Shown here: piece by piece, positions 1-56,858 of the stretch
Numbering within the stretch: the first letter of the stretch is position 1
Layout: every line of letters begins with the position of its first letter
Virus record (IMG/VR): IMGVR_UViG_3300011441_000012
Location: 1 to 56,858 of that record
Length of the DNA: 56,858 nt
Reading direction: 5' to 3' (one strand)
DNA from: a virus
Lineage: Duplodnaviria; Caudoviricetes
The notes under the pieces: model-generated
Told to the model about the DNA's origin: nothing
Databases searched by the model: none
What the model saw: the letters and a program-made list of their open reading frames with translations, nothing else
Translations under genes and position numbers: made by a program

Positions 1-1980
1 GGGGGTTACGCCTTCACCCAGTTTGGATTCGGCTTGCGATTTTTCGGCTTCTTGCACAGCCTCCACTTCCGGTTTTTCAGTTCGTATCGCTTCACTTGGC
101 TTCCTTGGATTGTAAACATTCGCCGTGTTGTAGGTTCTCTCAACTCCATTCGCAGCCCTTACCGTGATTCTTGGATTCAGTTTGTAGTTTACGGTGGAAA
201 AATAATTCTCCGCTTTTACGAGAGTCCACGGAGAAGGCATGTCAGCCGGACCTCCAGCGAACCCGAGTTTAATTTGCTCTCCGGGTTTGATCGTGTTTCC
301 GTCAGCGTCGAGAAGCGAGCCTTCTTCTGTGGCTCGAATATGCGATGCGTGCTCCTGAGGTTTCACCTCCCCACCCCTGCCTTGGATTTGGGGAGGGGGT
401 TGGGATTTACCCTGCTTTTCAGCGTATGGTTTTAGCACCTCCCAATCCAGTGCGCCATTTGGAAGGTCGAAAATTCTAGGGTCTTGGCGAACTTTACGGC
501 GCTCCAAGTCAGTCATGTCAGCCCAAACTGACTCCCTCAGTTTTTCGTCTGGAGCCACCTTGGATTCAGCCACAGCCCTTAGCTCTTTCTGCTTCTTCAT
601 CGCTTCGTTGGCTGATGTAAAACGGTAGGAGTCGGCGGCGTTCGGCTCGTAACCAACAATGCGCTCTTTTCCGTATCGCGAAATCTCTTTGACGGGACGA
701 ATGCTCCCTTTGGCTATGGCTTCCTGAATTGTTATTCCGTGGGCGTCGAGAAATTCTTGTTCGGCGGGGAGGAGTTTTCGACTTCTTTTTTCTCCCGCGA
801 TAGCAGGAACTCCAACTGCCTTCGGTGCATCTCCAGCCGGGCGTGCGCTGGCTCCAGTAGCGACTTCGCCGCCAGCACGTTCTCCAGCAATTCTCCCAGC
901 GGTTGACTGCGATATATCGCGTCCACCCATTTTATCACTTCGGATAGGCTCTCCAGTTGTTGATCCAGTATCTCCAATTCGTGTTGCTTGTTCATTCGGT
1001 GGTCCTTTCACCTCCCCACCCTGCCTCTTTTCACCTGATTCTGTCAAGAGGGAAGTGGGTTGTTTCCGAATATCCGTGGTCGGGTCCACCGGCAAAGTCT
1101 CGCGCAAGCCGGATTCGGTTTGAGCGGGGGTGAGAGCCGCCGCCTCGCGTTGCGCCTCCTCGAAGGTGAACTCCTGCGGCTTGACCTCTCGCGCAACAGG
1201 CTCAATCTCACGGGTCACTGGAGCAATCCTGTCCTGCGGGGGCATCGTAGCCTCCAGCGCCCTCTGGTTCGCCAAGTCCAGCTTCGCATCCCCCTGTCGC
1301 AGGGTTTCAATCGCAGGCTCAACCTTCTTGTAACCGTGCTTGGCGGCTGCTCCAGCCCCTAGGAACGATCCAAAGGCAATCGCCGCGTCTTTGGAAGCCT
1401 TTCTCCAATCGGACTTCTGGAACGCATCCCAAGCCTCCTCGGCGCTCTGGAAGCCTGCCCGTAGCATGTCATACGTCCACTTGGCGTACACGGCAGGGGC
1501 AAGCGGTGTGGCTGCTAGTCCCATCTGAATCGCCCCCGGCCCTGACGTGAAGAAGTTAGCCACTCCACCGACCAATTCCTCCAAGCCTTCCAATCCCCCT
1601 GAAATCACCTTGGCGGGAGCGCTGGGAGCTTGCGGAACAATCGGTGGAGGCACTACCCCGCTGGTTTCGTAGTCGCTGGCAAAACGGGTTGCGTCCAGCC
1701 CTTGCTGAATCACTTCAGGAGTGATCCCAAGTTTCGGAAGTTCAACTCCGGGATGGGTTGCCACGTCGCCAAATCCTTCCTGAACGGATTCCCGGAACGT
1801 GGCGCGGGCAACGTCCATCTCAGGCAATGCTGCCCGTGGACCGCCGCGAGTGGTGGTTGTGAGGTCGGGAAGATTGCGAACGCTTGGGTCAGAGATATTC
1901 TCGAAAGAATCCTCCAGAGCCTCCTCAAACGTGAAAGTCTTGGGCGCTTCCTGAACCTCCTCGAAAGTGAAAGTTGGCAT
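1..1980 (-). CDS. Giant internal virion/ejection (polyvalent-type) protein, N-terminal part; runs off the left edge
   Basis: Absent from the ORF track. Manual translation from ATG 1980 (MPTFTFEEVQEAPKTFTFEEAL...) gives 660 open codons to position 1. It follows the other internal-protein genes and probably continues as 56858..53497. Confidence 0.8.
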   Translation of the reverse strand, partial: MPTFTFEEVQEAPKTFTFEEALEDSFENISDPSVRNLPDLTTTTRGGPRAALPEMDVARATFRESVQEGFGDVATHPGVELPKLGITPEVIQQGLDATRFASDYETSGVVPPPIVPQAPSAPAKVISGGLEGLEELVGGVANFFTSGPGAIQMGLAATPLAPAVYAKWTYDMLRAGFQSAEEAWDAFQKSDWRKASKDAAIAFGSFLGAGAAAKHGYKKVEPAIETLRQGDAKLDLANQRALEATMPPQDRIAPVTREIEPVAREVKPQEFTFEEAQREAAALTPAQTESGLRETLPVDPTTDIRKQPTSLLTESGEKRQGGEVKGPPNEQATRIGDTGSTTGEPIRSDKMGGRDISQSTAGRIAGERAGGEVATGASARPAGDAPKAVGVPAIAGEKRSRKLLPAEQEFLDAHGITIQEAIAKGSIRPVKEISRYGKERIVGYEPNAADSYRFTSANEAMKKQKELRAVAESKVAPDEKLRESVWADMTDLERRKVRQDPRIFDLPNGALDWEVLKPYAEKQGKSQPPPQIQGRGGEVKPQEHASHIRATEEGSLLDADGNTIKPGEQIKLGFAGGPADMPSPWTLVKAENYFSTVNYKLNPRITVRAANGVERTYNTANVYNPRKPSEAIRTEKPEVEAVQEAEKSQAESKLGEGVTP
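361..1026. repeat. Direct repeat pair TTTCACCTCCCCACCC(C)TGCCT at 361-382 and 1006-1026
   Basis: 16 nt are identical; the copies lie 645 nt (215 codons) apart and both encode GGEVK in the giant ORF. Confidence 0.85.
732..995 (-). CDS. Nested (overprinted) 87-aa helical/coiled-coil protein
   Basis: Leu/Glu-rich heptad-like sequence with GGAGGTGAAAGGA upstream and the TTGAC-N8-GTGAA motif 35 nt upstream. The host frame over this stretch is low-complexity G/A/T/R. Confidence 0.65.
   Translation of the reverse strand: MNKQHELEILDQQLESLSEVIKWVDAIYRSQPLGELLENVLAAKSLLEPAHARLEMHRRQLEFLLSREKKEVENSSPPNKNFSTPTE
1030..1047 (-). promoter_or_regulatory. TTGAC-N8-GTGAA motif, copy 1
   Basis: Minus strand reads TTGACagaatcagGTGAA. 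Confidence 0.75.
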
Positions 1981-17326: not shown

Positions 17327-17736
17327 AATGGTTCAAATAGTTCATTCAATGACTTTTCCAGAAAGCTTTTGCTTATGAGCCTGACGCATCCCTGCTCCAG
17401 CGCCTCTTGCAATCCCGGCCATTCAAGATGTCCGGTGCAAAGAAACACCCTCACCAAAGGCCACTTGCTTTTGATTTCCTTGTGAATAGTCAGCCCGTCT
17501 ATGTCGGGCAGTTTGATGTCCAGTAGAACCACATCGTAAGTCACCAACGAAAGAGCTTCCAAAGCCTGATTCCCGTTCTCCGCCTCGTTCATGTCGAGGT
17601 TGTAGAGCGAGAGTAGATCGCGTATCAGCAGCCGTGTTGCCGAATCATCCTCCACCACCAAGACGCGAACCTTCCGAGAGATACATATTTTTGCAATGTC
17701 TTCTCGTAGTTGCTGGAGTTTTAAGTCCTGTGTCAT
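17302..17736 (-). CDS. Single-domain response regulator (receiver, CheY-like)
   Basis: VLVVEDD, phospho-acceptor in VVLLDIKLPDIDG, conserved T (CTG) and K (ISK). Confidence 0.88.
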   Translation of the reverse strand: MTQDLKLQQLREDIAKICISRKVRVLVVEDDSATRLLIRDLLSLYNLDMNEAENGNQALEALSLVTYDVVLLDIKLPDIDGLTIHKEIKSKWPLVRVFLCTGHLEWPGLQEALEQGCVRLISKSFLEKSLNELFEPLCVKKLIN

Positions 17737-20467: not shown

Positions 20468-20845
20468 TTATGCTACGACAAGGGTTTCAAGGAGGTGGCA
20501 GAGCAGGAACACTTTCATGCGCTGCTTCTCGTCTTTTCCAATGCTGCACTGGTAGCACTTGATCGCATCCCGGATTTCAGCAATCGTCGGAGCGACTTCC
20601 AATGCACCCGTGTTCACCGCAGCATTGATTGCCACCTGGGCTTCAAACGAGTTCAGTCGGGTGCCGCCGACACACCAGCACACCACAGCTTCCCGAAGTG
20701 TGTTCAGGTTGGTGTAGTCGCCGCCGTCAGAGGCGTTCAGGGCTTGGGCGGTGTAGTAAATGAACGCATCGAGCTTTTCCGCATCGCTCAGACAGTTCAG
20801 ACAATTTGCATCGTCAATCAGTTGGTCGAGATCGCAAGCAGCCAT
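20468..20845 (-). CDS. Three-module CxxC protein, putative decoration
   Basis: CLNCL, CWCV and CYQCS units, ending VFLLC. Confidence 0.65.
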   Translation of the reverse strand: MAACDLDQLIDDANCLNCLSDAEKLDAFIYYTAQALNASDGGDYTNLNTLREAVVCWCVGGTRLNSFEAQVAINAAVNTGALEVAPTIAEIRDAIKCYQCSIGKDEKQRMKVFLLCHLLETLVVA

Positions 20846-28703: not shown

Positions 28704-29795
28704 TTAATACCAATTTTTCCCATCCGATCCGGGCACAATATGAAACGCCAAGTTCTGGCGGTATTTGATGCACTGCTTGCAGAATGAATGTCCCGTGCGT
28801 TGCTCCACCATCTGCTCCGCCGTTGTGTCCATGAAATCTCCAACCGTTATTCTTCGGTCGGCAACGCAAGCGCACATCGAGGTTTTACCGTCATGCCGGA
28901 TGAACGTGAACATTCCGCCAGCACCCACTGGGCACACTTCCTGAATCGGGATATGCGCGTAAATCTCCCGCCCTTTCCTTGGGGAAACAAACAACCTGTC
29001 CATCGTGTCCTCCCATTGCTGAGACACTGGAGGCAGAATCGCATTCCAATCCGGCCTGCCTTCCTGAACCTCGAACGGGGTAGCCTCGGGATCGTGCTTG
29101 CGGCAATACTGAACCGCGTTCTCCATTGAGATCGCCCGCGCAAAGCTCGTGAAGAATCCTATGCCGCAGCTTTCCGCGTAGGCTTTCATTGCGTCAACCT
29201 CGTGGGCGTTGTCGTTGTACACGTGATAATTCACAAGGATGGTCACGCGCTTATCCTTCGGTCGCGCCTTGTTAGCGTCCCCGATGATTTTCATGTTCTC
29301 CTTCACCTTCTCGATGTTCCCGCCTTGATGACCCTTCACATACACTTCCTGCGTGAATCCTGATAGGCTGATGATGATGAGGTCAGGTCCGGCCTCCAGC
29401 AATTCTTCCACGCGCTGGACGTGGTTGAGGTTGGTGGACATCTCGGGGTGCAGCCCTCGGGACTTTATAGCGGTGATGACCTCGGGTAGCTTGGGATGCA
29501 CGAACGGTTCGGAGTTTCCATAGGTGAACACGATGGCGTTTGGATTCTCGGCTTTGATCTTGTCAAGAATGCGCTCCATCAAATCCCAATCCATCAAGCC
29601 GTTTAGGTGATCGTATTTCTTTCCGTCAATTTCTTCGCGGTTGCCTTTGGTGCAGGTTGGGCACTTCAGGGTGCAGGCCGAATTCACCTCCAGGAACACT
29701 CTCCAGTGCGGGGTCTTGGTGACTGCCTCTGTGATCGCGCCACTGATGAACGGCTTGGAGGCAAGCCCGTATTTTGCTTTGAGCTCAGGTGTCAT
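28704..29795 (-). CDS. Radical SAM enzyme with C-terminal SPASM/twitch-like Cys domain
   Basis: CTLKCPTC (CxxxCxxC), SEPFVHP, STN motifs; C-terminal C...CAC...CKQC. Confidence 0.9.
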   Translation of the reverse strand: MTPELKAKYGLASKPFISGAITEAVTKTPHWRVFLEVNSACTLKCPTCTKGNREEIDGKKYDHLNGLMDWDLMERILDKIKAENPNAIVFTYGNSEPFVHPKLPEVITAIKSRGLHPEMSTNLNHVQRVEELLEAGPDLIIISLSGFTQEVYVKGHQGGNIEKVKENMKIIGDANKARPKDKRVTILVNYHVYNDNAHEVDAMKAYAESCGIGFFTSFARAISMENAVQYCRKHDPEATPFEVQEGRPDWNAILPPVSQQWEDTMDRLFVSPRKGREIYAHIPIQEVCPVGAGGMFTFIRHDGKTSMCACVADRRITVGDFMDTTAEQMVEQRTGHSFCKQCIKYRQNLAFHIVPGSDGKNWY

Positions 29796-29798
29796 TGG

Positions 29799-30302
29799 CT
29801 AGGTTAGCACAGTTGGGAAGTTAAGTTTTGCGAATTCTCCGAATAACACTGAAGCCTTTTTGTCGTAAGCCCTGCCAGCGGATTCCTCGTCATTAAAAGC
29901 CCCGATGTATATGGATTTTCTGTTGTTCACCAATCGAGCTATCCACTTTTCGTCTCTTATGTGCCAATAAACGCCCTTAAACCTGCTGCTAAGACCCGGC
30001 TCTTTTCTTCTGTTTCTCACATTCTCAGTCGCAGAGCACGGCCTTAGATTTGAACGCTGATTGTTTAGCCCATCCCCATCCCTGTGGTCGAACAGAGTGT
30101 CCGGTGAAAATCCAAGTCGAATCATTATTTCCCTGTGCATGTACATAGTTTCACCGGATGGTCCGACAGTATGGAGCGCATACCATCTCTCAATCCCAGT
30201 GGGGCATGTCCTCGTCGCCCTCCAGCTTAACTTTTCAACCCAGTCAAAGTCACTATCGTCAACGAGTGCAATCTTGCCTCTGGTTAATTCAATCGTTTTC
30301 AT
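29799..30302 (-). CDS. HNH-AP2 homing endonuclease
   Basis: ALVDD.D, YMHR, DHRDGDGLNNQRSNLR, SRFKGV, AGRAYD...FGEFA.LNF. Confidence 0.92.
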   Translation of the reverse strand: MKTIELTRGKIALVDDSDFDWVEKLSWRATRTCPTGIERWYALHTVGPSGETMYMHREIMIRLGFSPDTLFDHRDGDGLNNQRSNLRPCSATENVRNRRKEPGLSSRFKGVYWHIRDEKWIARLVNNRKSIYIGAFNDEESAGRAYDKKASVLFGEFAKLNFPTVLT

Positions 30303-30304
30303 AA

Positions 30305-30988
30305 TCAGTGTTCGATTGATGTCGGCTTCCAGCCGTGGTGGTAATCTTTTATTTTTGGGAGTCTTGGACCAAACCCGATAAAACATTCCGCTTCATACCG
30401 CGACTCAATGGACTTGATCCCTGATTTCTTGATCCTATCCCGGCGCGTCATGCTCGGCAGAGTCCGTAGAAAGTTGGATTGTGAGAAGTGGAAATTTCCC
30501 GCCCAGATGCTTTGAGTTCCGTCAGCCTGATTGGTCATCCAGTGGCAACCTACCGACTCATACCCCGCCTCAAGGTCTTCAATGCAACGCCACCATTCTT
30601 TGATGACGTGGCGCATCATGCAATTTCGCCAGTTGATTCCGTGCTCAGTCTGTTCCTCCCTCGAAGCACCCTTCGCGTGGAAGTACAACACGTTCCAACC
30701 GGGATGACTCAGCGCAAACTCGTGCATCGCGCAGATCGTCAGGTTTTCGTTTCTGCAATCCAAGCCGTGCATCATTATTTCCGCCTTGGGTGGTATCACC
30801 AAGTTCGCAATCTCGCGGCTCGCCTCTCCGCCGTTAATTCCTACCACGAACTTGGATGCTGTATCCAGCAAGCCTGAAGCGCGGAGTTGCACCATCTGCT
30901 CGTGGACAATGTTGACAGCTTGCGGTAGGACTTCGGGAGGGTTGCCCAACTCGAACAGGCAATGGAAATAAATCGCAATGGGCTTCAT
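30305..30988 (-). CDS. Glycosyltransferase-like protein
   Basis: ENLTI, VLYFHAKG, WR..M, AGNF, RYEAE.FIG motifs. Confidence 0.6.
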   Translation of the reverse strand: MKPIAIYFHCLFELGNPPEVLPQAVNIVHEQMVQLRASGLLDTASKFVVGINGGEASREIANLVIPPKAEIMMHGLDCRNENLTICAMHEFALSHPGWNVLYFHAKGASREEQTEHGINWRNCMMRHVIKEWWRCIEDLEAGYESVGCHWMTNQADGTQSIWAGNFHFSQSNFLRTLPSMTRRDRIKKSGIKSIESRYEAECFIGFGPRLPKIKDYHHGWKPTSIEH

Positions 30989-32849: not shown

Positions 32850-33119
32850 TTATTTTTCAGATTTCATGGCCTTAATTCGTATGATGGCTGATGAGAAATT
32901 CTTTTTGTTCCAATCGGGAAGTCGGCTGTAAAAAACTTCGAGCGAATCAAGACACATAGCCAATTCCTGAGACAGTTCGTTAGCCTCACTCAACTCACGT
33001 TCGAGTTTTCGGGCGAAGTCAACGTGAACAAACTGTTTTCCTTGCGTTGATGAGTAGTCTCCGTCGCTCATGTATGCGCCCTCACTGGCGGCTGCATCTG
33101 TTAGTGGTGTGTCGCTCAT
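32850..33119 (-). CDS. MSDTP.TDA...DFAR.LERE family protein, copy 1
   Basis: Paralog of 40537..40881. Confidence 0.65.
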   Translation of the reverse strand: MSDTPLTDAAASEGAYMSDGDYSSTQGKQFVHVDFARKLERELSEANELSQELAMCLDSLEVFYSRLPDWNKKNFSSAIIRIKAMKSEK

Positions 33120-33136
33120 AAATTCACCATCTCAAT

Positions 33137-33154
33137 TTCACTCAAATCTGTCAA
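33137..33154 (-). promoter_or_regulatory. TTGAC-N8-GTGAA motif, copy 2
   Basis: TTGACagatttgaGTGAA, intergenic, 17 nt before the ATG at 33119. Confidence 0.8.
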
Positions 33155-33171: not shown

Positions 33172-33441
33172 TTATTTTGGCACGATAAAATAACCAGCTT
33201 CACTTTTTAGCTCGGAAATGGCGTCCTGCATTGTTGGGAAGTATTTCTCGTCTAGCCAATCTTTCATTTTTTCGCCTTCTTCCTTGGCAACTTCATTGAA
33301 CACGGAACACTCTGTTATGTGGTATTTTTCACACAGCCTTTCTATCACGCGCACGTACAAATGATGCTTTAAGGTCTTGATGTCCCGGTTGATGATGAAA
33401 TCGTCAACCTCCGTTAATTCTTCTGGATTTTGGTCGCTCAT
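33172..33441 (-). CDS. Hypothetical protein
   Basis: Coupled ORF. Confidence 0.55.
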   Translation of the reverse strand: MSDQNPEELTEVDDFIINRDIKTLKHHLYVRVIERLCEKYHITECSVFNEVAKEEGEKMKDWLDEKYFPTMQDAISELKSEAGYFIVPK

Positions 33442-37832: not shown

Positions 37833-38090
37833 TTAAGATCGCTGCCAAGTTTCATCCAGCCTAATCCACAGCCCCTTGCTTGTTCCGAATACGCTGGCTA
37901 GTTGCGCTGCGGTTTTTTCATCGAGCGTCACACCTTTGGTTGGAGCGTAGATTAGAAGATTCAAGTCAAGCTCAGTTGTTTCTCCACCCATTCGATGCGC
38001 TAAATCCTGCACCGACCAGCCGCGCTCCTTAGCCTCATCAAAGATGAAACACCCCACAGGGAATACCTCGGCTTGAGTTTTATCGCTCAT
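37833..38090 (-). CDS. XRE/HigA-like HTH regulator
   Basis: PVG.FI.DE..ERGWS..DLA.RMG...A.QLA.VFGTS..LW. Confidence 0.8.
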   Translation of the reverse strand: MSDKTQAEVFPVGCFIFDEAKERGWSVQDLAHRMGGETTELDLNLLIYAPTKGVTLDEKTAAQLASVFGTSKGLWIRLDETWQRS

Positions 38091-38116
38091 AACATTTCCA
38101 CCCTCTCATTATTTTC

Positions 38117-38152
38117 TTGGCACGGCAAGAACATTTCACTAATATACGTCAA
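38117..38152. promoter_or_regulatory. Plus-strand leaderless promoter overlapped by motif copy 3 (38135-38152)
   Basis: TTGGCA-17nt-TAATAT-7nt-ATG on the plus strand; TTCACtaatatacGTCAA is the motif on the minus strand. Confidence 0.75.
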
Positions 38153-38398
38153 ATGAAATTGCGCTGCCCTAGATGTCACGGTCTCGGAAAAGTCGAACTC
38201 GAATCCCTCTCGACCGCCCACCGAGAATGCCTGAAAGTCCTGAGCAACCTCGGCACCGCAACCCCGGAACAGGTTCACGTTGCTTCCAGAACCAAGTTGG
38301 GGTTGACCGCTACTCATCATCGGCTTTATCGGCTGGCCAAGCTGGGGCTGGTCAAGCAGGTTGGAGTTTCTAGGCCGGCGCGGTGGAAGGTGGCGTGA
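38153..38398 (+). CDS. Zn-ribbon + winged-HTH regulator, candidate repressor
   Basis: CPRCHGLG followed by LST..RECL..L...ATPEQV...RL..L.KLGLV; isolated antisense gene. Confidence 0.7.
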   Translation: MKLRCPRCHGLGKVELESLSTAHRECLKVLSNLGTATPEQVHVASRTKLGLTATHHRLYRLAKLGLVKQVGVSRPARWKVA

Positions 38399-39050
38399 TT
38401 TTTTTTGGCTCACACCTTCCTTTGCGAATAACAATCCAATAACAGTGAACATTTTTTGAGTGGTGTGAATTTATCCATCTCCCGCTCTTTAAGTTTCCTC
38501 CGCATGGGTCGCGCTTGATTATCAAGTCGCATGGCGTAAGGCCAGCCTCTCGCGCTGCGATTTTGAAGTATTCAAGATTCCACTGATAGCAATGGTTGTG
38601 GATGTAGTCCTTGATTTTCGCCAGTATCAGCCCGTCGCGGCGCAGCACTCGCTTCGCCTCTTTCAGCATTGGCGGGTGGAGTTCTGCCACGTTGTCTGCC
38701 TTGGCGCTGCCATGAAGCCCGTAATCTGTTCCGTATCTGGCGAGTGATTTTGGGGAGGCGGCAGCCGCAGGGAGGTGTGGCGGGTCATACACGATTACGT
38801 CCACGCTCACGTCGTCATCGGGTAGGCTGTCCCACGCGCACACCACATCTGGATTCATAGCGGAATCCCTGTCGTAATAGGCAACCCGCTTCGCCCATTT
38901 GCTGCCTTTCCACATTCTGCGTGTATTGCAGCACACGTCTATCACGCGATGCGCGTTCGGAGCATAGAAGTTTAACATCAAATCTAGTAGCGCGTTATCC
39001 TTTCCCATGAATACCGATTCTGGCCGCTGATTTATTTCATAATCACTCAT
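38370..39050 (-). CDS. DNA amino-methyltransferase (N6-A/N4-C)-like
   Basis: VIDVCC SAM-binding strand, VYDPPH catalytic-type motif, EAKRVL..DG; start at ATG 39050. Confidence 0.75.
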   Translation of the reverse strand: MSDYEINQRPESVFMGKDNALLDLMLNFYAPNAHRVIDVCCNTRRMWKGSKWAKRVAYYDRDSAMNPDVVCAWDSLPDDDVSVDVIVYDPPHLPAAAASPKSLARYGTDYGLHGSAKADNVAELHPPMLKEAKRVLRRDGLILAKIKDYIHNHCYQWNLEYFKIAAREAGLTPCDLIIKRDPCGGNLKSGRWINSHHSKNVHCYWIVIRKGRCEPKKITPPSTAPA

Positions 39051-39382
39051 TTTTCCTCCAGCCATTTCATCCTCTTGCGGAGCGTGGCCGTTGAGATTCC
39101 CAGAACCGCAGCAATCGCCACTTTGGTTTTCTTGTCGCCGGAGATTTGCTCCTTCGCCATGCTGATTTTCTGACTCCACTCCAGCCGCATCCTCTCCGCA
39201 GCCGATTCCTGAGATTCAATCTCCGAGTAGCGCACAATCCAAGGTGCGCCCTCAACCTCGATCATGCACACGGGTTCAAAGTTGACCGTCCCCAGGTCGC
39301 GCAGGAAGATCGCGTTCGGCTGGCCGTTGTATTGGTCCGCGTTCGGTTTCTTTTTGAAGAACAGTGGTTGGTTCTTTTTCAT
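39047..39382 (-). CDS. Protein with C-terminal Fis-type HTH
   Basis: AIAAVLGISTATLRKRMK. Confidence 0.7.
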   Translation of the reverse strand: MKKNQPLFFKKKPNADQYNGQPNAIFLRDLGTVNFEPVCMIEVEGAPWIVRYSEIESQESAAERMRLEWSQKISMAKEQISGDKKTKVAIAAVLGISTATLRKRMKWLEEK

Positions 39383-39387
39383 GGTGG

Positions 39388-39964
39388 TTATTTTTCGATG
39401 AGGTAAATCGTCGGTTCAGGAAGCATCACGATGCGGTCAATCTCCAGATCGTAAGGATCGTCGTTTCGGGTTGGCTTAACCCGGAGTATCACCTTCCGAT
39501 TCTGGTCGTCGCGCAATAGTTCTTCAGCTAGTTCTTTTGTGGTCATGGCGTTTTTACCTTCATGTGCGAATAGTCATTGTTTGGATTGAATCCTTTTTTA
39601 ACCCTCCACTCGGCGGAAAGCTTTTGCTCTTTCTTGATTTGTTTTAAGCTGCTGCAAAGTGGTATCGGTCTTGGTTGAATGGCATAGCAAATCTGCTCTC
39701 CTGGGTAATAATGTGCTGGGCGACCGTCCAAGGTGTGCATGTATTTATATTTCATAGGTGTCCCGTTCCTTTCTCGTAAAACGCCAACCGGATAATCCGA
39801 TCCTTCTCGTTGCAGGGTTGGCCAATCGAAGTCTCAGATGGGCTTTCGATCCAGGTGTCATTCACCACTATATCCCCGGCGTCAATTATCTCTCGCGGTT
39901 TCAAGGGCCGGAACGTGCCGCCAAATCCCTTGCGGAGCATTTTTTTGATGCTTGATGTATTCAT
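39388..39964 (-). other. Three small hypothetical CDS (39388-39546, 39543-39755, 39752-39964)
   Basis: ATGA-coupled ORFs. Confidence 0.55.
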
Positions 39965-40185
39965 TTCGCGTATTCGTTCTTAACCATTTTCTTCGCCAGC
40001 GCGTAGTGCGTCAGCTTTGCGATGGAGTCAATCCGAAGCTCCATCTTGATCCGGTCTATGTTCCGCTGCACGCCGCTCTCAGTGAGTCCTATGTCGAAGG
40101 CAATGTGTTTGTAGGACTGGCCGTCAACGACTCGCTTCAGGACTTCCTTCTGGCGTGGGGTGAGGGTTGGGGTTCTTGGTTTCAT
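39961..40185 (-). CDS. Stand-alone LuxR/GerE-type HTH regulator
   Basis: LTPRQKEVL..VVDGQSYK.IA...L..YA. Confidence 0.85.
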   Translation of the reverse strand: MKPRTPTLTPRQKEVLKRVVDGQSYKHIAFDIGLTESGVQRNIDRIKMELRIDSIAKLTHYALAKKMVKNEYAK

Positions 40186-41094: not shown

Positions 41095-41160
41095 GTAATA
41101 AACTGTTCACGCATTTTTGTCAAAACAAATGTGGACATTTCTTCACTGCTGTGTTCTACT
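41095..41160. promoter_or_regulatory. Divergent promoter region with motif copy 4 (41106-41123, minus)
   Basis: Minus: TTGACAaaaatgcGTGAAcagtt-TATTAC (17-nt spacer). Plus: TGGACA-17nt-TCTACT. Confidence 0.7.
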
Positions 41161-42663: not shown

Positions 42664-42691
42664 TTGACAACTTGAGGTGAAGGGGTATAAA
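42664..42691 (+). promoter_or_regulatory. Replication-operon promoter with motif copy 5
   Basis: TTGACAacttgagGTGAAgggg-TATAAA (16-nt spacer). Confidence 0.8.
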
Positions 42692-42699
42692 CGTCCGTG

Positions 42700-42835
42700 T
42701 TAGCGCGACCTTTGGACGGGCCGCACAAACAGAATGTTCCGAAACTTAACAGCGCCAGCTTGTGACCCCGTGGGTTTTGACATTGCGCCCGCATTGTCTT
42801 TGTCCCGCCCGTCCGCACAGGCTGGCGTTTTTAGG
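42700..42835 (+). ncRNA. Candidate attenuator/pseudoknot leader
   Basis: GGACGGGC pairs with GCCCGTCC; AGCGCCAGCTTGTG pairs with CACAGGCTGGCGTT, followed by a U run. Confidence 0.55.
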
Positions 42836-42843
42836 ATTCGGAT

Positions 42844-44245: not shown

Positions 44246-45366
44246 TAGATTTCGACAAACTTTCAGTCGCCATGACCATCCCGGTCGCTGTCGTGTCGCC
44301 AACCGGACCAGTCAATGGCGCCGTGGCTGAATACTTCCCATCCGGTGAAGACGAATCCTCAAACCTACCTCCCGGAGAGAGCAAGCCATCCATCTCCCTC
44401 CCTCCCATCGTTGACTCCGCCACCTTCATCGCCACCGAACTCCCGGAGCCTCCCTCCCTCATCAAAGGCTTGGTCCACCAAGGCACGAAAACCATCGTCG
44501 GCGGAGGCAGTAAGTCCTTCAAAACCTGGATTCAACTGGACGTGGCCATCTGTGTCGCCTACGGCCAGCCCTGGATGGGATTTGAAACCACCCCCGGTCG
44601 CGTCCTGTTCGTGAATTTTGAGATTCAGCCAGCCTTCTTCCAGCGCCGGCTCAAAACCATCATGGAATCCAAAGGCATCACCTTCGAGGAGGGCCGGCTC
44701 GACCTCTGGAATCTCCGGGGATTCTCCGCCGCCTACGGAATCCTCATCCCCCAGATCATCGAACGAATCAAATCTGTGGGCTACTCCCTCGTCATCCTCG
44801 ATCCCATCTACAAGCTCTACGGGTCGGCCAATGAAAACGATGCCTCCGAGGTGGCCCAACTCCTGAACTCCCTCGAAAAGGTCTGCGTCGAAACCGGAGC
44901 CGCCATCATGTTCGGCGCTCACTACTCAAAGGGCAACCAATCAACCAAAGAGTCTGTGGACCGCATCTCCGGCTCTGGCGTATTCGCCCGTGACCCGGAC
45001 TCCATCATCCCGTTCACCCGCCACGAGGAGGAAGGCTCTTTCGTGGTCGAGCCCACCTTGAGAAACCTAGCCCCGGTCCCGGCTTTTACCGTCACCTGGA
45101 ACTTCCCAATGATGGAGCGAAACGAGTCCTTGGACCCATCCAAATTGAAGCAGTCAGTTGGTCGCCCAAAAGAGCATTCCTCGCAAGCCATGCTGACCCT
45201 TCTAAATGACGGTCGTTTAACCAACGAAAAATGGCAGGAATTAGCCTCTGAAAGTCTCGGAATTTCGAGGGCAACCTTCTTTCGTCTGAAATCGGAGCTA
45301 AAGTCTCAAGGTCGCATAATGTTTTCTAGGGTGGACGAAACGTGGGTAAAGATTGAAAAGCAATAG
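44242..45366 (+). CDS. RepA-type (AAA_25, SF4-like) replicative helicase with C-terminal HTH
   Basis: GGSKSFKT, VLFVNFE, VILDP, HYSKG, SGSGVFARD. Confidence 0.88.
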   Translation: MIDFDKLSVAMTIPVAVVSPTGPVNGAVAEYFPSGEDESSNLPPGESKPSISLPPIVDSATFIATELPEPPSLIKGLVHQGTKTIVGGGSKSFKTWIQLDVAICVAYGQPWMGFETTPGRVLFVNFEIQPAFFQRRLKTIMESKGITFEEGRLDLWNLRGFSAAYGILIPQIIERIKSVGYSLVILDPIYKLYGSANENDASEVAQLLNSLEKVCVETGAAIMFGAHYSKGNQSTKESVDRISGSGVFARDPDSIIPFTRHEEEGSFVVEPTLRNLAPVPAFTVTWNFPMMERNESLDPSKLKQSVGRPKEHSSQAMLTLLNDGRLTNEKWQELASESLGISRATFFRLKSELKSQGRIMFSRVDETWVKIEKQ

Positions 45367-45380
45367 GTTGTGAAAACTCA

Positions 45381-45480
45381 GTCTCACAATCTCATAATTG
45401 TCTCAAAACTGTCTCAGAAGTCTCCAGTCTCAAAGTCTCATAACCCTTATAGGGTATGAGACTGAGACTAGACTGAGACT
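45381..45480. repeat. Iteron-like GTCTCA array with central palindrome; candidate replication origin
   Basis: Five exact and two near GTCTCA copies, a hairpin, then three TGAGAC. Confidence 0.75.
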
Positions 45481-46891: not shown

Positions 46892-46909
46892 TTGACGGGA
46901 AAGGGTGAA
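46892..46909 (+). promoter_or_regulatory. TTGAC-N8-GTGAA motif, copy 6
   Basis: TTGACgggaaaggGTGAA at the head of the early-gene block. Confidence 0.75.
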
Positions 46910-46954: not shown

Positions 46955-49900
46955 ATGAAAACGCTAACTCTAACACCAAGTCAAATCTACCATCGCAAAA
47001 ACAAACTCTGGAAAGCCTATTCCGACTTTGCCAAACGTGTTCGCAAAGCCTTCTTTCCAGACACTGACGGCGTGAGTCTCTATTTGCATAATTGGTATAT
47101 CTGCGCAGAGAAGTCTAACCCCAAAGGCGCAAAGCTGGCGCAATGGGTAGAGGATTCCACTTATGCGCGATACAAGAAATTGGAAGCGAAACTGGAATTT
47201 GACGCCGTTGAACGTGAACACAAGTTTGGCAACCATAGCAAGCGCAACGGAGGATTTGATCCGCTCTGGTGTCCTATCTGCAATCCTCACAAGGCTTCCG
47301 CTTACGGCTATGTGATGGTCAATGGAAAGTGGATTGACGAGAAGTATGCCAGTCTATTGCCCGAACAAAAGTTTGCTCTGGTTTCCAACTAACTCCACAC
47401 CCCCGCTACACACCATGAAAACTAAAACGACGAAACTCGAAACAATTACATACACGCTGCCCTCCTATTGGGCCAGCTATCTAATCAACGGAGATGCATC
47501 AGGCATTAGTGACGATGATCAAGCGCAGGCTGATGCGTTCTTAAAACGCGAAGGTCTGCCGTCGCCTTGCTCATGCTCTGATGAATCTTGGTTCGCGCAT
47601 CGCAATGACGCCGGAACGCTGGCGGGCGATGTATTGGACTATACTTTTTTCATTCACGCTTAATCCCCACACCCCAAACCAAAAGACTATGAAACAAAAA
47701 AACTATATCCCAGTTGACGGCATTGAAGATGGAATTGACTTCGATGCTCACTACAAGATCGGCCCAGTTGCCGTTTCTTGGCGCTTGCTTGGCTGGCACG
47801 CTGAATGGGTGCCGATTATGTGCTATTGCACGGATGACGACGGCAACGAATACGAGACGGAAAGCGGAGAATTTGAACAAGAGGCTGACTGCTCCAAAGT
47901 TGTGGCTGTCATGGTTGGTGACGACAGGAAACACATCGTTGACCGTGACGACATTGAGCTAATCCCCGAGGATAGCTTTTGCCGATCCTGCGGTCAGATT
48001 GGATGCGGTTGTAACGTGTACGCCTAGCTCTAATCCCTCCCCGTTTCCCCCTGGCTTCAAGTCGCGGGGAAAGGGGCGGGGATAGACAACCATAAAAACG
48101 ACGATATGAACACAGCGACTAAAATCTACCTAGCTCTAGGACTGGACAAAGCGACGACAATACGACGGATGGCCGCGCATGTGGCTTGCGTCTATTGGAT
48201 GGAGATGCACCGCTACGGAGAAATTGCCGGCAACATCAAATCAATGGAGCGTATTTGCAAACGTTTCCACGTTGGAGATTTTATCTGCGCCCTTGCTCCC
48301 CACTATCCGATTAGGAAGTAACAGCAAACCACAAAACCAAAGAAAGAAACGACGAAATGAAAACGACGATTGAAACGACGACGGATATTTTCCCGCCCTC
48401 CATCCTGACCAAAAACCAAAAGAAAAAGTTCGGCCCTAAATCCTACATGGAGCACGGGAGCCGGATGAGCATAACGGCAGAGGTCCGCTATGATGACCAA
48501 TGCGGAAACGGTCATAACTCGTTTTCCATCACGGCGGAAATTCGCTGCAACGGGCGAGAAGATTCTTTTGGGTGCTGCCACGATGAGGTTGCCAAGCATT
48601 TCCCCGAACTGGCTCCGCTAATCAAATGGCACCTAACGTCATCAGATGGTCCGATGCACTACGTTGCGAACACGGTTTACCATGCCACACAGCACGGACC
48701 GAAAAGCGCATGGGTGTATTTCGAGGACAAAAATAACGGCATTTCCCGGCATTGCGTCAAATACTGCGACCTAGACGAGGCGCAGAGCATTTGCACAACG
48801 AGAGGCTATACAATGGAAGTTGACGCAAAGACGGCAAAGGAAGCCAACCTGGATCACGCCCGCTCATCGGCAGTATGGCCGGAAGCAACACAGGAACAAC
48901 TTCTGGATAAAGACGCGCTACTGGGCCGCCTCCCTGCGCTCATGCTGGAATTCAAGGCGGCAGTGGAGTCTTTGGGATTTGTTTATTAACCCACACCAAC
49001 CTAGAACACACCACACCATGAAACTAAACAGTATTGCAGCAAATCAAACTGAAGTCGAACGCGCCGACGGATCAACCGTTTTCTATTCTTACAAAACGCC
49101 AGTTGCCGTCTTTGTTCCTGGCCGTGGCGCACTGGTCACGTCCAAGAAATACAGCAAAACGACAAGCAAGCACATCACCCAGACCGTTAACCGTTGGGGA
49201 GCTACGCGCCACGAGGTTGAACAGGACGAGATTGATAAGTTGTCGGCATAGCCACATCTCCCCTCCCCGGTTGCTCTAAAACTAGGGCACGGACTCGTCA
49301 TCCGGGTTTGCCGGGGAGGGGTAAATTTGAACCAGACCGAAAACGACGGGAAAACTGAAAAGACTTATGAAAACTGAACACACACCGACGCCGTGGGAAA
49401 TTGGCATCAGCCACACAGAAGAAATCGCAATCCGTCATCCCGAAGGCGATTGCATTGCTACCGTATGCGACCTGTTAGAAGGAGAGGCGCAAGCCAACGC
49501 CTCATTCATCGTCCGCGCCTGCAATTCTCATGACGAGCTTGTGGCTTGCTTGGAGGATATTCTGGACGCTGACGGCGACTTAAACGTGATGGACTTCAAC
49601 CGCTACCGTGCCGCCCTAAAGAAAGCGAGCGCCAAATGAGCGACTTCACCCGCTACCACCAACTACGCGAAGCAATGGCCGCAATGCTCAAGGCCGGCCA
49701 GTTTCAAACCCTGCCGTTCCAGGATGCGTGGCTCGCATCAGAGCGCATTAAAAACCGGCATGGGGGAATGCCTCCGTTGCCGGATGACTACGAAGCGGAC
49801 AACATGGAACAGGCAGAGACGGCGAACCTTCAAGGATTGCGATGAAACAACCAATCACATTCAAAAAATTCTCGCCTCAATGGTTCCAGAATTACATCGC

Positions 49901-50448
49901 TCTGCGCCAGCTAGCTTTTGAGCGATCAATGGACCGTGGCGACTATCACGCCGCGAATATCGCTTGTGCTCAAAAGCAATGGGCTGAAATGCGATTGGCG
50001 GACATGACAGAAACAAACGAGGACGGCAGGGCAATTCAGAAAACAATTAAATACAAAAAGGAAACTAAATGAAAGTTGTAATCAAATGTCCATACTGCGG
50101 GATTGAACATGAGCGTGAATATGACGTTGAAATCGTGCGCCCTAAGGTAGAAAACTGCGACTGTGAATCCGGGGGCTGCGATAAGTATTTCGCTGTGACA
50201 GTTTGGTTCAAGCCGGAGGTGCAAGCCTTCAAGGTGCAACCCGCATGACCCCCATCACCCCCGAAATGGTTGACCGCTTTGCCGTAGCAATGCGCCACGG
50301 CTATTACTGGTGCATCCCATGCCAAAAGATCGTCGAACCCGTGAACCAAGGCGAGGCTAACCTGCAACGCTGCCCGGATTGCGACTGTGCGCGGATAGCG
50401 TTTTATCCGGCAGTCCTGCCCGGTTCAAAAGACGACGAAAACATTTGA
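46955..50448 (+). other. Early small-gene block: 46955-47392, 47415-47663, 47689-48027, 48106-48321, 48357-48989, 49018-49251, 49367-49639, 49636-49845, 49842-50072, 50069-50248, 50245-50448
   Basis: Familiar phage early-gene motifs (WASYLINGD, GCCHDE..HFPEL..LIKWHL, FYSY.T.VA..YSKTTSKH, HTP.PW); A/C-rich leaders. Confidence 0.7.
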
Positions 50449-50463: not shown

Positions 50464-50481
50464 TTGACAGAATCCAGTGAA
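50464..50481 (+). promoter_or_regulatory. TTGAC-N8-GTGAA motif, copy 7
   Basis: TTGACagaatccaGTGAAaag, nearly identical to copy 1. Confidence 0.8.
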
Positions 50482-53496: not shown

Positions 53497-56400
53497 CTAT
53501 CTTTGCTTTTCTCTCTCCTCGTAAGTAGAAACGCCCGCACCAAAAGTCGCCAGAACTTGAATGATTGCCCCCTCGGTCATTCCGCGATCCCGCATCACTG
53601 CAATGATCTCTTGGACCGACAATGGCACTGGCACCCACGCTGCCGCCGCATCTCCAACAGTCACTCTCACCTTGCTCGCAGGCTTTCCAGAATCAATGGC
53701 GGCGATAGCCGTCTTAACTATGGCGGCAACGTCTGGTCTAGCCTTGTTCTTGAAGAAATTCCAAATGACCTCCCCAGTTCCAAAATCCGAAATGTCCCTT
53801 TCCTTTCCAGAGATTCCGGTTGTAATCCCCTTGGCGATCCTTGAACTAGATACGATAGGTTGCTGAAATCCAGCCCACGGATCAATGCGCGTGTCCCCGC
53901 GTACCACCTTTCCGAAATCGCTAGAGGTAGAATCAGACTCTCTTTTGTCTGAAAACAGACGGCTCACCGAATACAAGGCGACAATGGAAAGAATCCATCG
54001 GACATATTCCTTGGCCGCAATCTTTCTGGCGCGACCACTGCCGGCCCATTCTGCTGCTCCCCATAGCGGCTGACCACTCAACGCCTGAAGCCGGCTGGCC
54101 AACAGGCTTGGCGACCAGAGTAATTCCCCTGTCACCTTGGCCACGCCTCGATTAAGATTACCTCGCCCCGTGGAGATGTTGACCAGATTTCCGATCACCT
54201 TCAAATCCGCTGCGGTCGGCGGCCTATCCTTGAAATTAACCTCCAGTAGATAGTCCGCCAGATTGGCGCGGGCGGAGTTTAGGAATGTGATGAATGCTCG
54301 GTTGCTCATTCGCACTCCTTTGGCTCCGGCTTTTGGAATCGCAGTAACCCCCGTCTTGATTGCGCTTCCGGTTCTCATAGGAACTTCCGCCCATTCGTCC
54401 AGAATGGAATGCGCCCGGTCCTCCCATTTGGTAAAGTCCGTCGTCTTGAGTTCGGTGTACTGAATCCCCATCTGCTTATCTGCGCCACTTTTTGCATTTG
54501 GCCGGTTCGTGCGCCACTGCTCAATGCCATTCGCCACTGACTCGCTTTTCATGGCCTGATACATCTTCACGAAAGGATCACCCATAAGCCTCTTGGCGCT
54601 GGACGGGTTGGTGATGGCACGGCTCAGATTCGCCAGTAAGTAAAGAAACGCCTGTCTTGGGGCTGACAAGTCGAACGATGACAGAAGATTCACGAATGCG
54701 TCCTTACCCTGCCTGATTCCGTGCCACACCTTCTGCATTCGGCTGCGCTTCGCCATGTTGTCCAGATACAAACCATGCTTCCATTTATGCTTGATGGATT
54801 CCACCTCTCCAAGCAAACGCATGGCTTTTGCATCGCCTGAAATATCCAGCGGAGGCTTGCGGGTTCTGGGTCGAAAATCCCCACGGGCTAACTTTCCGCT
54901 CCAATATTCCAATTCCCGCGACAGTGCCGCCGTCTTGGCTTTCAAGGCTGTCACCGCAGGATCGCGCTCTGGCTTTGGCTGGAGTGCGTCCCTCGCCCAC
55001 TCTCTTTCCGCCTTGAGCGCGGCGATGGTCTGCCTATTCGCCTCCAGCTTTGCGCTGGTCAACTTCAAAGGCTGTTTGGATTTCGGGAAAATTTCTCCGG
55101 TTTCTTTTTGCCGTTCCAATACTGCGATCTGACGGGTGGTCGAGCGTTCCGCCAGTTCCACGCGCTGCAAGTCGGTCAACCCTGGTGTTTCAAAAATCGA
55201 ATCCCGATCTGCCTTGGTCTGCTTGTATTCCTGCCGCAGCGCCTCTAGCTCAAGATCAGTTGGAGCAGGGGTTTTGGATTTAACGATTTTCTCTCGCGTC
55301 TTTATTTCGTGCCGCAAATCTGCCAGCCGGTTGCGATAGTAGGTCTTTTGAGAATCCAACACTGATGCCAGATGCTTCGCCATGTCCGTCACTACCACGC
55401 CGAACTTTCGTTTCAGTTCATTCAACCGCTGAACCTCCCGCCGTGCCGCATCGCTCAATGGCCTGCGCTGGAGCCCAGTGGGCGGTAGCGGCTTTCTGGC
55501 TTCCACATCCATTTGATGCCCCATCAATCGGATTTGGGTTTTCAAATCGGCCACCTTTGCGGAAATTACATCCTCGCTTGGCAGTGTATATTTGCCACGG
55601 GTTGAGATGGCGTCCATTGCCTCCAGTCTGGTGATCTCTGGAATGAAGGCTTTTAGGATGCCCTGCACCTCGTTAATCAAGGCTTCACGATCTATCTTGG
55701 GGTCGCGCTCCACGATGGCCCGAACCAGTTTTTGCACGTCCGACGCCACCGCATCCAATTCCCCCTTTTTCACCTTGGCTTCGATGCTACTTGTCGCCAA
55801 ATCAATCTTCTCGGCGGCATCTCGCTTCTTGACCACCCGCTTTACCGCTTCCGCTTCCGGTGCAGTCTTTACAAACCCGGCGAGCCGTTCATCTACCATC
55901 GCGTTGCTCGCCTTAAAAATTTCATCCAAGTGCGGCTTTATCCATTCTCCAACGTCACGCACCATCGCGTCCGCCCACTTGACTGAATCCACAAGCCCGC
56001 GAGTAATCTTTGAGGCTCCGTAAATCGAAAGGTCTATCAACTCCACAGGGTCCACGCCCGCCCCGCGACCCATTATGCCTTTTTCCGCTGCCGCCTGACG
56101 CGCCTTGATTCTAGCTAGAGCGGAACTTCCCAACTCATCCATGTAGAGCGAGAACTTCTCTGCGTATTGAAGCACTTTAGGCGAGTATTGTGGCGCGGCT
56201 TTAGACTCCGCCAGTGCTCGGGCAATTTCCGCATCCACCAACTCGCGCCCCTTCTGCTCCAGTTGCGCCTCAAACTCCTTCAGTTTGGCTTGGTAGGCAT
56301 CATGGGTTTTCTGAATCTCAACCCGCTCCGCATCCGTGATCGGCCTCCAGTCGTTCGCCTCCCGTTTCTGCATCTCCAGAGCCGCAAGGCTGTAATCCTC

Positions 56401-56858
56401 GTTCAGCAATCTTTGCCGGGCTTGGCCGGCGCGACCCCACTCTGTCCCTGCCAGCTTGGTGATCTCCGATAGCTCCTTAATTTGGTTGCTCCAGTGCTGT
56501 GCGCGTTCTCCAGCCTCCTTGACCGCATCCATGCGCCCGTCGTCATAAGCCTGAGCCGCCTCTCGGGTCGCCTTTGCGTGTTCCACTTTCAGGTCCACCA
56601 GACGATGATCTAGAGCGAATACTTCCTCATCGGTGAGTTGCCGCGTCTTTTTTTTCAGATCAGCTATAAGCACATCCTGCCACGCCGGGTCCAAGTCAAT
56701 TTTCGCCATTACGCGATCCCACAGCGCTTGATTGCTCTGTCGCTGGGCCTCCAAAAGCCCCGGCATCCCAAGCCGAGCCAATTCCTTTTCCATCGCGGCA
56801 TTTTTGATTCCCGTGGCGGTTTGGAGATTGGGTTTGTACTCGGCTGGGACTGCGCCAC
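53497..56858 (-). CDS. Giant internal virion protein, C-terminal part (open at the right edge)
   Basis: Frame is open upstream of ATG 56793 to the edge; long helical protein with SSDFGK..G.TR.D..AG motif. Confidence 0.8.
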   Translation of the reverse strand, partial: GAVPAEYKPNLQTATGIKNAAMEKELARLGMPGLLEAQRQSNQALWDRVMAKIDLDPAWQDVLIADLKKKTRQLTDEEVFALDHRLVDLKVEHAKATREAAQAYDDGRMDAVKEAGERAQHWSNQIKELSEITKLAGTEWGRAGQARQRLLNEDYSLAALEMQKREANDWRPITDAERVEIQKTHDAYQAKLKEFEAQLEQKGRELVDAEIARALAESKAAPQYSPKVLQYAEKFSLYMDELGSSALARIKARQAAAEKGIMGRGAGVDPVELIDLSIYGASKITRGLVDSVKWADAMVRDVGEWIKPHLDEIFKASNAMVDERLAGFVKTAPEAEAVKRVVKKRDAAEKIDLATSSIEAKVKKGELDAVASDVQKLVRAIVERDPKIDREALINEVQGILKAFIPEITRLEAMDAISTRGKYTLPSEDVISAKVADLKTQIRLMGHQMDVEARKPLPPTGLQRRPLSDAARREVQRLNELKRKFGVVVTDMAKHLASVLDSQKTYYRNRLADLRHEIKTREKIVKSKTPAPTDLELEALRQEYKQTKADRDSIFETPGLTDLQRVELAERSTTRQIAVLERQKETGEIFPKSKQPLKLTSAKLEANRQTIAALKAEREWARDALQPKPERDPAVTALKAKTAALSRELEYWSGKLARGDFRPRTRKPPLDISGDAKAMRLLGEVESIKHKWKHGLYLDNMAKRSRMQKVWHGIRQGKDAFVNLLSSFDLSAPRQAFLYLLANLSRAITNPSSAKRLMGDPFVKMYQAMKSESVANGIEQWRTNRPNAKSGADKQMGIQYTELKTTDFTKWEDRAHSILDEWAEVPMRTGSAIKTGVTAIPKAGAKGVRMSNRAFITFLNSARANLADYLLEVNFKDRPPTAADLKVIGNLVNISTGRGNLNRGVAKVTGELLWSPSLLASRLQALSGQPLWGAAEWAGSGRARKIAAKEYVRWILSIVALYSVSRLFSDKRESDSTSSDFGKVVRGDTRIDPWAGFQQPIVSSSRIAKGITTGISGKERDISDFGTGEVIWNFFKNKARPDVAAIVKTAIAAIDSGKPASKVRVTVGDAAAAWVPVPLSVQEIIAVMRDRGMTEGAIIQVLATFGAGVSTYEEREKQR

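Follow-up and report, generated by a model that had tools for sequence, protein, structure and literature searches.

The phage genome record IMGVR_UViG_3300011441_000012 (hereafter the window, that is, the whole IMG/VR record of 56,858 bp, with a CheckV completeness of 100%; a terminal repeat was looked for and none was found) carries seven exact copies of TTGAC-N8-GTGAA, an 18-bp near-palindrome (near-dyad) with a free 8-bp center. One of these copies abuts the start codon of a small gene, P0002. The motif is a selected element that points along transcription and is linked to P0002, which is a real gene encoding an 81-aa protein with a winged-helix fold. We tentatively favor the reading that the motif is a dispersed operator, fused to the −35 hexamers of the promoters that it controls and read by a dimeric, autoregulated P0002 repressor; we give this reading a little less than an even chance of being correct.

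The TTGAC-N8-GTGAA motif and its linkage to P0002

An earlier reading of the window made from its letters alone (the sequence-only reading) had listed seven exact copies with their positions and strands, and the list is borne out (Table 1): 0.15 copies are expected, and 0 of 100 shuffles reach seven. Among all words of the form 5-N(0–15)-5, TTGAC-N8-GTGAA is the most enriched in the window (7 copies vs 0.20 expected, Poisson 2e-9). Copies with a single mismatch occur at the chance level (4 extra vs 4.2 expected in total); therefore, the motif is either perfect or absent. When the seven sites are aligned with 45 nt of flank per side, no other column is conserved; the sole extras are A/G at position 6 and, in 6/7 copies, a purine at position 13. 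The left arm reads TTGACA in five copies and TTGACG in two. A hairpin-RNA reading of the motif was dropped because every copy retains a central G-G mismatch; sigma-54 promoter, extracytoplasmic function (ECF) promoter, CRP box and FNR box readings were dropped because the sequence misfits the consensus of each.

Each of the seven copies runs in the same direction as the genes around it: copies 1–4 are on the minus strand, where transcription is leftward, and copies 5–7 are on the plus strand, where it is rightward. If orientation were random, this would happen with a chance of 1/128. Six copies are located in intergenic gaps at the heads of operons and one is intragenic; thus, the statement in the sequence-only reading that each copy points into a gene start stands for six copies and fails for copy 1, which is found inside an open reading frame (ORF) of 660 aa. 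The surroundings of copy 1 encode a seemingly low-complexity part of this protein, and the ORF at 732–995 is an alternative frame inside the same 660-aa ORF. Copy 2 heads the 33-kb leftward structural array, and copy 3 heads an XRE-type helix-turn-helix (HTH) gene (start 38090(−)) together with conserved genes for 600-aa, 249-aa and 240-aa proteins. The gap with copy 4 is also divergent, with a rightward ORF that begins at 41129 or 41131. The block after copy 6 (46892) had been called a glycosyltransferase insert; this label is without support, as the scanned genes at 46955–50248 match no glycosyltransferase family in PHROGs or Pfam.

Variants of the region around copy 3 were obtained in a scan of Joint Genome Institute (JGI) metagenome contigs that identified eight contigs with P0002 at 84–98% identity; variation was counted in the window plus these eight contigs, which together represent seven haplotypes. 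The DNA runs X4, X6, X8 and X9 provided contig-level variants only, and the 24 runs listed as containing the stretch include no RNA run. The 62-nt gap between the divergent start codons keeps its exact length in all of the variants. Within this gap, 0/10 positions of the pentamers, 5/8 positions of the N8 spacer and 24/44 positions of the remainder are variable (Fisher p = 0.0009); because the pentamers are invariant in 8/8 variants while the spacer and flanks vary, the motif is a selected cis element, in agreement with the sequence-only reading. The fixed positions in the N8 spacer are the T, A and T of the rightward −10 hexamer (TAATAT, TACATT or TATCTT); a TTG is fixed 17 nt upstream, and the distances are constant.

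The same contigs separate the candidate binders. P0002 and the site stay linked in 8/8 contigs, and wherever a contig extends over the recognition helix and wing of P0002, these show no change. In four contigs, as in the window, the XRE-type gene comes first to the left of the site; in the other four, its place is taken by one of three unrelated genes, which encode a 106-aa protein (two contigs), a membrane-like protein of 62 aa and a Cys-rich protein of 71 aa. Because the XRE gene is swapped while P0002 persists beside the site, it is P0002, and not XRE, that forms a conserved unit with the site. The LuxR/GerE-type HTH protein encoded farther along (Table 1) has a recognition helix that differs from that in the window in contigs L052 and L053, although the motif is identical. 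P0002, the candidate binder named in the sequence-only reading, is thus the best candidate, both from its linkage to the site while the XRE gene is replaced and from a homologue in a related genome (G015, described below) that has a GTGA dyad in its own promoter.

P0002, its family and a homologue in a related genome

The sequence-only reading began its feature at 38117; this position is a TTG in the promoter, and the gene begins at the ATG at 38153, which copy 3 abuts and which is not preceded by a Shine-Dalgarno sequence. Its description of a motif copy covering the −10 and start site of a leaderless TTGGCA-17-TAATAT-7-ATG promoter proved accurate, and this architecture is conserved across the variants; because the ATG comes 7 nt after TAATAT, the P0002 mRNA is predicted to be leaderless. 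At 38087–38452, a minus-strand ORF of 121 aa overlaps P0002 (81 aa), which is on the plus strand. Per contig, the P0002 frame contains 4–15 synonymous and 2–8 non-synonymous codon changes, compared with 0–6 and 7–19, respectively, for the minus frame. Because the changes are mostly synonymous in its frame and mostly non-synonymous in the minus frame, P0002 is the coding frame, and the minus-strand ORF (38087–38452) was rejected as a real gene.

A HMMER search of 1.84 billion representatives identified 28 P0002-family proteins at E ≤ 1e-3, nearly all with lengths of 77–109 aa. In their alignment, an N-terminal CxxCxGxG sequence precedes a winged-helix pattern; all members have C5 and C8, and at least 90% have G10 and G12. 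The AlphaFold2 (AF2) model calculated from the family alignment (predicted local distance difference test, pLDDT, 83.7) has a classic winged helix at residues 21–80, with helices H21–33, H38–45 and H51–63 and wing strands 67–70 and 77–80; the model calculated from the single P0002 sequence was poor (pLDDT 43.9) and was set aside. The codon changes, the family and the AF2 winged helix together substantiate the proposal that this is a real gene with a zinc-ribbon or knuckle sequence followed by a winged HTH. When the model was compared with the Protein Data Bank (PDB) using Foldseek, the matches were Fur, MarR, MecI/BlaI, ArsR-type and AspA domains, with template modeling (TM) scores of about 0.65–0.71 and E-values just above 1e-3. 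The Fur, MarR, MecI/BlaI and AspA-type matches are mostly dimeric repressors. The predicted complex of two family-alignment copies with zinc scored 0.11 compared with a mark of 0.42 and speaks neither for nor against a dimer.

Profile searches gave weak matches only: MarR/ArsR chains (E 0.002–0.02, with MarR at 0.002), the DnaJ zinc domain 1exk (E 0.008) and, weakly, anti-TRAP. P0002 has no match to the PHROG families at E ≤ 0.001, and its only Pfam match is DUF4423 (17 bits vs the 30-bit cut-off); of the 26 family members scanned, 0 reach the curated Pfam cut-offs, with MarR_2 matching two and TrmB three, all at E ≥ 0.0015. Because no member reaches a Pfam cut-off and the profile hits are weak, we consider the family unclassified. 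The knuckles of DnaJ and anti-TRAP use two CxxCxGxG pairs per zinc ion, whereas P0002 has a single CxxCxGxG; the family has no conserved second cysteine pair (most members have C26), and a third ligand might be provided by H9, C9 or C11 in the variants. A word-index search with P0002 retrieved only itself, and a search of the ESM Atlas gave sub-threshold leads only (0.85). The single-protein scan of viral contigs identified no close relatives of P0002, the helicase or the 517-aa structural protein, and scans of the same type of contigs with the family members P0143, P0136 and P0138 identified no relatives.

Two side observations concern P0002 and its knuckle. A DNA methyltransferase-like gene (38370–39179(−); phrog_24333, 1.6e-15) shares 29 nt with the 3′ end of P0002; this gene is missing in the variant contigs L051–L053, which have ~236 bp in its place. 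In the relative G013 (L058, 24400–24700, minus strand), a small protein has a CPxCxGxG knuckle that is fused to an XRE-type HTH, not to a winged helix; its gene is located behind TTGACA-17-TTACAT, with a near-leaderless start. From these sequences, the CxxCxGxG knuckle seems to be a module that is common to different small phage regulators.

The 517-aa structural protein has hundreds of relatives. Related genomes were examined for the motif, as the sequence-only reading had suggested; the result was negative, with the motif present in 0 of the 21 related IMG/VR records searched, which share the structural module (517-aa protein at 48–70% identity). Six complete relatives share with the window only the block at ~2.9–37.2 kb. 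A de novo search for dispersed motifs in seven related genomes returned tandem repeats, terminal repeats or twice-counted palindromes as the top words, and the six complete relatives contain no dispersed word on a par with the motif. The GC content of the seven relatives that were fetched whole is 49–60%, and an alignment of the 517-aa protein against genome contigs gave no match and, therefore, no hint of the host. Judged from these comparisons of sequence, the motif is part of a mobile regulatory module and is not a trait of the phage group or of a shared host.

Of the 21 records, G015 alone encodes a P0002-family protein (E 6e-8). The promoter of this homologue consists of TTGACA, a perfect TCAC-N8-GTGA dyad, a −10-like GAGCAT and, ~8 nt on, an ATG (i.e., it is leaderless). 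A second dyad in G015, which shares the 9-mer TCACCGGAA with the first, fills the 17-nt spacer of TTGACG-17-TTGTAT at 20543–20575, in a gap between same-strand genes. An operator inside the 17-nt spacer of a promoter is in the position of a repressor. We estimate a probability of ~0.006 that a T[GC]AC-N8-GTGA dyad would by chance lie in the 100 bp ahead of an independent homologue. In this one genome only, the P0002 family thus appears to be linked to GTGA half-sites that are 8 bp apart, in a dyad placed where a bound protein would block the polymerase. A search with the G015 homologue (P0155) retrieved its own record and an identical fragment only.

Promoter character of the sites and competing explanations

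In a sigma-70 consensus scan of 37–53.6 kb, 10 promoter-like sites were found compared with 11.3 expected, that is, the chance level. The hexamers located 16–18 nt past the seven motif TTGACs are more −10-like than those after the other 122 TTGACs (mean 2.33 vs 1.57; Mann-Whitney p = 0.002), in a comparison in which the −10 scoring weights are E. coli values and the background TTGACs are mostly in coding sequence. On the idea that TTGAC doubles as a −35 element, the observations point both ways: TTGACA is present in 5/7 copies and the −10-like scores exceed those of other TTGACs, but 0/7 motif sites pass the sigma-70 scan. Canonical promoters without GTGAA are found ahead of P0002 (TTGGCA-17-TAATAT) and in G013 (TTGACA-17-TTACAT), and G015 contains the canonical promoter TTGACG-17-TTGTAT; from these promoters in the window, G013 and G015, the hosts probably use ordinary sigma-70 promoters.

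According to the reading that we favor, P0002 would be expressed from an ordinary sigma-70-type promoter as a leaderless mRNA and, probably as a dimer, would bind the near-palindrome T-TGAC-N8-GTGA-A wherever it is present. The preferred half-site would be GTGA(A); G015 carries GTGA on both arms. The left half-site would double as the −35 hexamer (TTGACA or TTGACG) of weak promoters that head transcription units, so bound P0002 would occlude the −35 and spacer and thereby block RNA polymerase. At copy 3 (38135–38152), binding would cover the −10 and start of the P0002 promoter, resulting in negative autoregulation; copies 1 and 3, without a −10 in their own sense, may road-block read-through in the manner of stoperators. 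The left arm, TTGAC, is one base from TTCAC; if it must also serve as a −35 hexamer, the retention of the G/C asymmetry and of the orientation in every copy would be accounted for.

Several observations weigh against a P0002 repressor acting at a dispersed operator. In addition to the failure of all seven sites in the sigma-70 scan, copies 1, 3 and 6 have no convincing −10, which fits activator-dependent promoters. The G/C asymmetry of the half-sites is kept in 7/7 copies and 8/8 variants, which a symmetric dimer alone fails to explain. Only two cysteines are invariant across the P0002 family, so we treat the zinc site as putative. A global repressor would be of little use to a strictly lytic phage, and PHROG/Pfam scans of the window genes (the scans referred to below) identified no integrase, as the sequence-only reading had remarked, and no partition protein or S24/CI-type peptidase. 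Finally, the relatives provide little company for the system: besides the absence of the motif from all 21 records, the region at 37.2–53.5 kb (regulators, replication, recombination) is nearly without counterpart in the six complete relatives (4 ORFs have weak, partial hits); G015 has only 2 such palindromes and no genome-wide set; and, because the other relatives are without module and motif, the co-variation of protein and site can be compared on G015 alone, in which the protein is distant.

Positive control is the strongest competitor, although we consider it somewhat unlikely. The motif would then be a phage-specific promoter or activator site. Host polymerase would initially produce an early factor, P0002 (from its canonical promoter) or else the 74-aa protein of LuxR/sigma-region-4 type, which would bind TTGAC-N8-GTGAA, switch on all of the blocks, whose −10 elements would be too weak on their own, and at once shut the P0002 promoter. 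This mechanism accommodates the 0/7 sites that meet the sigma-70 scan, the lack of a conserved −10 column in the seven-site alignment, and the fact that one promoter class heads early, replication, recombination and structural blocks alike; however, a site over the −35 and spacer is the position of a repressor for the sigma-70 holoenzyme, and the dyads in G015 are placed in the normal 17-nt spacers of canonical promoters, a poor fit for an activator site. The perfect, non-degenerate copies resemble the promoters of phage-specific transcription machinery, and the ATG located 8 nt past copy 7 fits a start point that is set by the motif, but the scans revealed neither a phage RNA polymerase nor a full sigma factor. 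The scans also found no lysogeny genes, in favor of positive control. As to the factor itself, a GerE/sigma-70 region 4-type protein is encoded at 39961–40185 (Pfam GerE 5e-9); its recognition helix differs in L052 and L053 despite the identical motif, and the fold of P0002 matches mainly repressor families.

A host protein could also read the motif, either as the box of a host global regulator (LexA-like or another dimer) or as a sub-class of host promoters, with P0002 acting only locally. TTGAC is the general bacterial −35 core, but the canonical promoters of P0002 and G013 have no GTGAA at that place. The E. coli LexA box (CTGT-N8-ACAG) has an identical N8 geometry, and some phages without CI, e.g., GIL01, use the LexA of their host; however, host boxes are usually degenerate, whereas here 7/7 copies are perfect and near-copies are not above chance. 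The motif is also absent from the 21 phages that share the structural module, although these may have other hosts (GC 49–60% in the seven relatives noted above), and the dyad recurs beside the P0002 homologue in G015. We regard control by a host factor as improbable. A non-transcriptional role, in which the copies would be centromere/partition, replication, packaging or modification signals and P0002 would be a segregation adaptor, derives some appeal from the matches of the P0002 fold to the centromere-binding AspA of pNOB8 (4rs8 and 5k5q, TM 0.58–0.60) and from the lack of an integrase in the scans, since a plasmid-like prophage would need partition. However, 7/7 copies are oriented with transcription, 6/7 are at the heads of operons, and one overlaps the −10 of a promoter; a ParA-type ATPase was not detected in the scans, partition sites are normally clustered and not dispersed, and the iteron cluster at 45301–45480 is a better candidate for an origin. 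We therefore give this role scarcely any weight.

Neighboring features and comparison with known systems

The features discussed here are collected in Table 1. Just upstream of copy 2, a small gene (33172–33441(−)) is skipped in the contigs of runs X6 and X9 (joints 33167>33454 and 33157>33451), so copy 2 borders a variable slot. Between copy 5 and the first replication gene, the 162-nt leader (42682–42843) has a strong fold (−67 kcal/mol, z = −3.3), and the hairpin that it contains may act as an attenuator or terminator or give rise to a small RNA. At 45301–45480, at least 10 (A)GTCTCA words are present in both orientations, with 19-nt direct repeats and several inverted pairs; the cluster starts in the last 66 nt of the helicase gene (end 45366), runs ~115 nt past it and is likely an iteron-type replication origin.

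At the ends of the window, the 660-aa ORF at 1–1980(−) runs off the left end and a 1119-aa ORF at 53497–56856(−), which has relatives in G002 and G011 at 27–28% identity, enters from the right end. In combination, they would amount to a very large late protein or protein pair; on simple circularization, the two frames fail to join exactly (2 nt are left over). Inside the structural array, 17302–17736(−) encodes a 144-aa stand-alone response-regulator receiver protein (Pfam Response_reg, 1.4e-22). A radical SAM protein (28704–30386(−); Pfam 1e-11) is encoded beside an HNH/AP2-domain endonuclease in the conserved block, and copies of its gene that are 47–64% identical are found in 4/6 relatives. 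Rfam and tRNA scans of the window gave no matches.

Table 1. Positions of the motif copies, the candidate binders and associated features in the window.
Feature	Position	Strand	Remarks
Copy 1, TTGACAGAATCAGGTGAA	1030..1047	−	Inside 660-aa ORF 1..1980(−), co-oriented with that ORF
Copy 2	33137..33154	−	52-bp gap before gene 32850–33119(−); ATG 17 nt past motif; best −10-like hexamer GATGGT
Copy 3	38135..38152	−	62-bp divergent gap; overlaps −10 and start site of P0002 promoter; points leftward to XRE gene
Copy 4	41106..41123	−	Heads leftward small-gene block, ATG ~41083; block includes LuxR/GerE-type HTH; best −10-like hexamer TATTAC
Copy 5	42664..42681	+	Heads primase/helicase block (phrog_2597, AAA_25), first gene 42844; best −10-like hexamer TATAAA, 16 nt past motif
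Copy 6	46892..46909	+	Heads rightward block from 46955; block genes without known family
Copy 7	50464..50481	+	Heads Sak4-like, SSB, VRR-NUC block; ATG at 50490, 8 nt past motif; best −10-like hexamer AAATAT
One-mismatch motif copies	6543, 7463, 43425, 48743		All within ORFs
XRE-type HTH gene, 85 aa	37833..38090	−	First gene leftward of copy 3
P0002 promoter, sigma-70-type	38117..38145	+	TTGGCA 38117–38122, 17-nt spacer, TAATAT 38140–38145, ATG 7 nt on
P0002, 81 aa	38153..38398	+	CxxCxGxG zinc knuckle (putative) and winged helix-turn-helix; only plus-strand gene in leftward region
LuxR/GerE-type HTH protein, 74 aa	39961..40185	−	Like sigma region 4; Pfam GerE 5e-9; alternative candidate binder
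Long hairpin, then T-run	42738..42842	+	In 162-nt leader ahead of 42844

Gene regulation in uncultured environmental phages is almost entirely unexplored, and most genes of this phage have no family match. From its sequence, a complete candidate circuit can be read: one small regulator, its leaderless promoter and seven targets that head replication, recombination, early and structural blocks. If P0002 binds the sites, this would establish a new family of minimal transcription factors in phages, operator included; the immunity or timing logic of a whole group of 50–57 kb freshwater/groundwater phages would be opened to gel-shift and reporter assays, and a compact, orthogonal regulator-operator pair would be available. 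A bolder proposal, which we consider quite unlikely, is that a new family of ~80-aa leaderless knuckle plus winged-helix proteins would act as single-protein global switches of 50–57 kb phages; a half-site would be merged with the −35, so every promoter would be born repressible, and the lone CxxC would form an inter-subunit zinc bridge, and oxidation or metal stress that breaks this bridge would induce a prophage with neither an integrase nor a RecA-cleavable repressor.

Dispersed operators of a single phage repressor are already known; what is new here is the 80-aa knuckle plus winged-helix family expressed from a predicted leaderless mRNA, the proposed operator/−35 fusion and the perfect conservation of seven copies. 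The repressors of P1 (C1) and the Streptomyces phage phiC31 also use many dispersed operators in several operons, and P1 is a non-integrating plasmid prophage; however, these repressors are much larger and belong to unrelated folds/families, and their operators are not known to be fused to the −35 in every copy. Unlike P1, no plasmid-maintenance genes were seen here in the scans. Lambda cI is expressed from PRM as a leaderless mRNA; similarly, P0002 starts at or within 1–2 bases of its predicted transcription start site, has no Shine-Dalgarno sequence and has a putative operator that overlaps its promoter. Unlike lambda CI, P0002 has neither an XRE-type HTH nor an S24 peptidase domain (Pfam and PHROG gave no match to the CI-type combination of XRE HTH and S24 autopeptidase in P0002 or any other gene scanned), and it has a single putative operator compared with three in tandem. 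Because the divergent gene is swapped in 4/8 variants, a Cro-like partner is not conserved.

The mycobacteriophage L5/cluster A repressor gp71 is a monomeric, 183-aa protein with two DNA-binding domains and more than 20 asymmetric 13-bp sites; the orientation of these stoperators follows transcription, and a reversed site loses function (PMC9283540). The window resembles L5 in having near-identical sites spread over the genome in promoters and short gaps (here seven, six of them intergenic and all seven co-oriented), and it differs in its 81-aa candidate with a single winged helix and a putative zinc knuckle, in its 18-bp near-dyad and in having only seven sites. Unlike MarR and PadR proteins, P0002 is without extra N- and C-terminal dimerization helices and has the CxxCxGxG knuckle instead. 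P0002 shares with them the winged helix (Foldseek matches to MarR, Rv1846c and MecI with TM 0.69–0.71) and, at its candidate operator, the geometry: PadR operators are ATGT/ACAT inverted repeats, 8–10 nt apart, that are bound by dimeric winged-helix proteins (PMC3506622), so the TGAC-N8-GTGA geometry would be ordinary for a protein with this fold.

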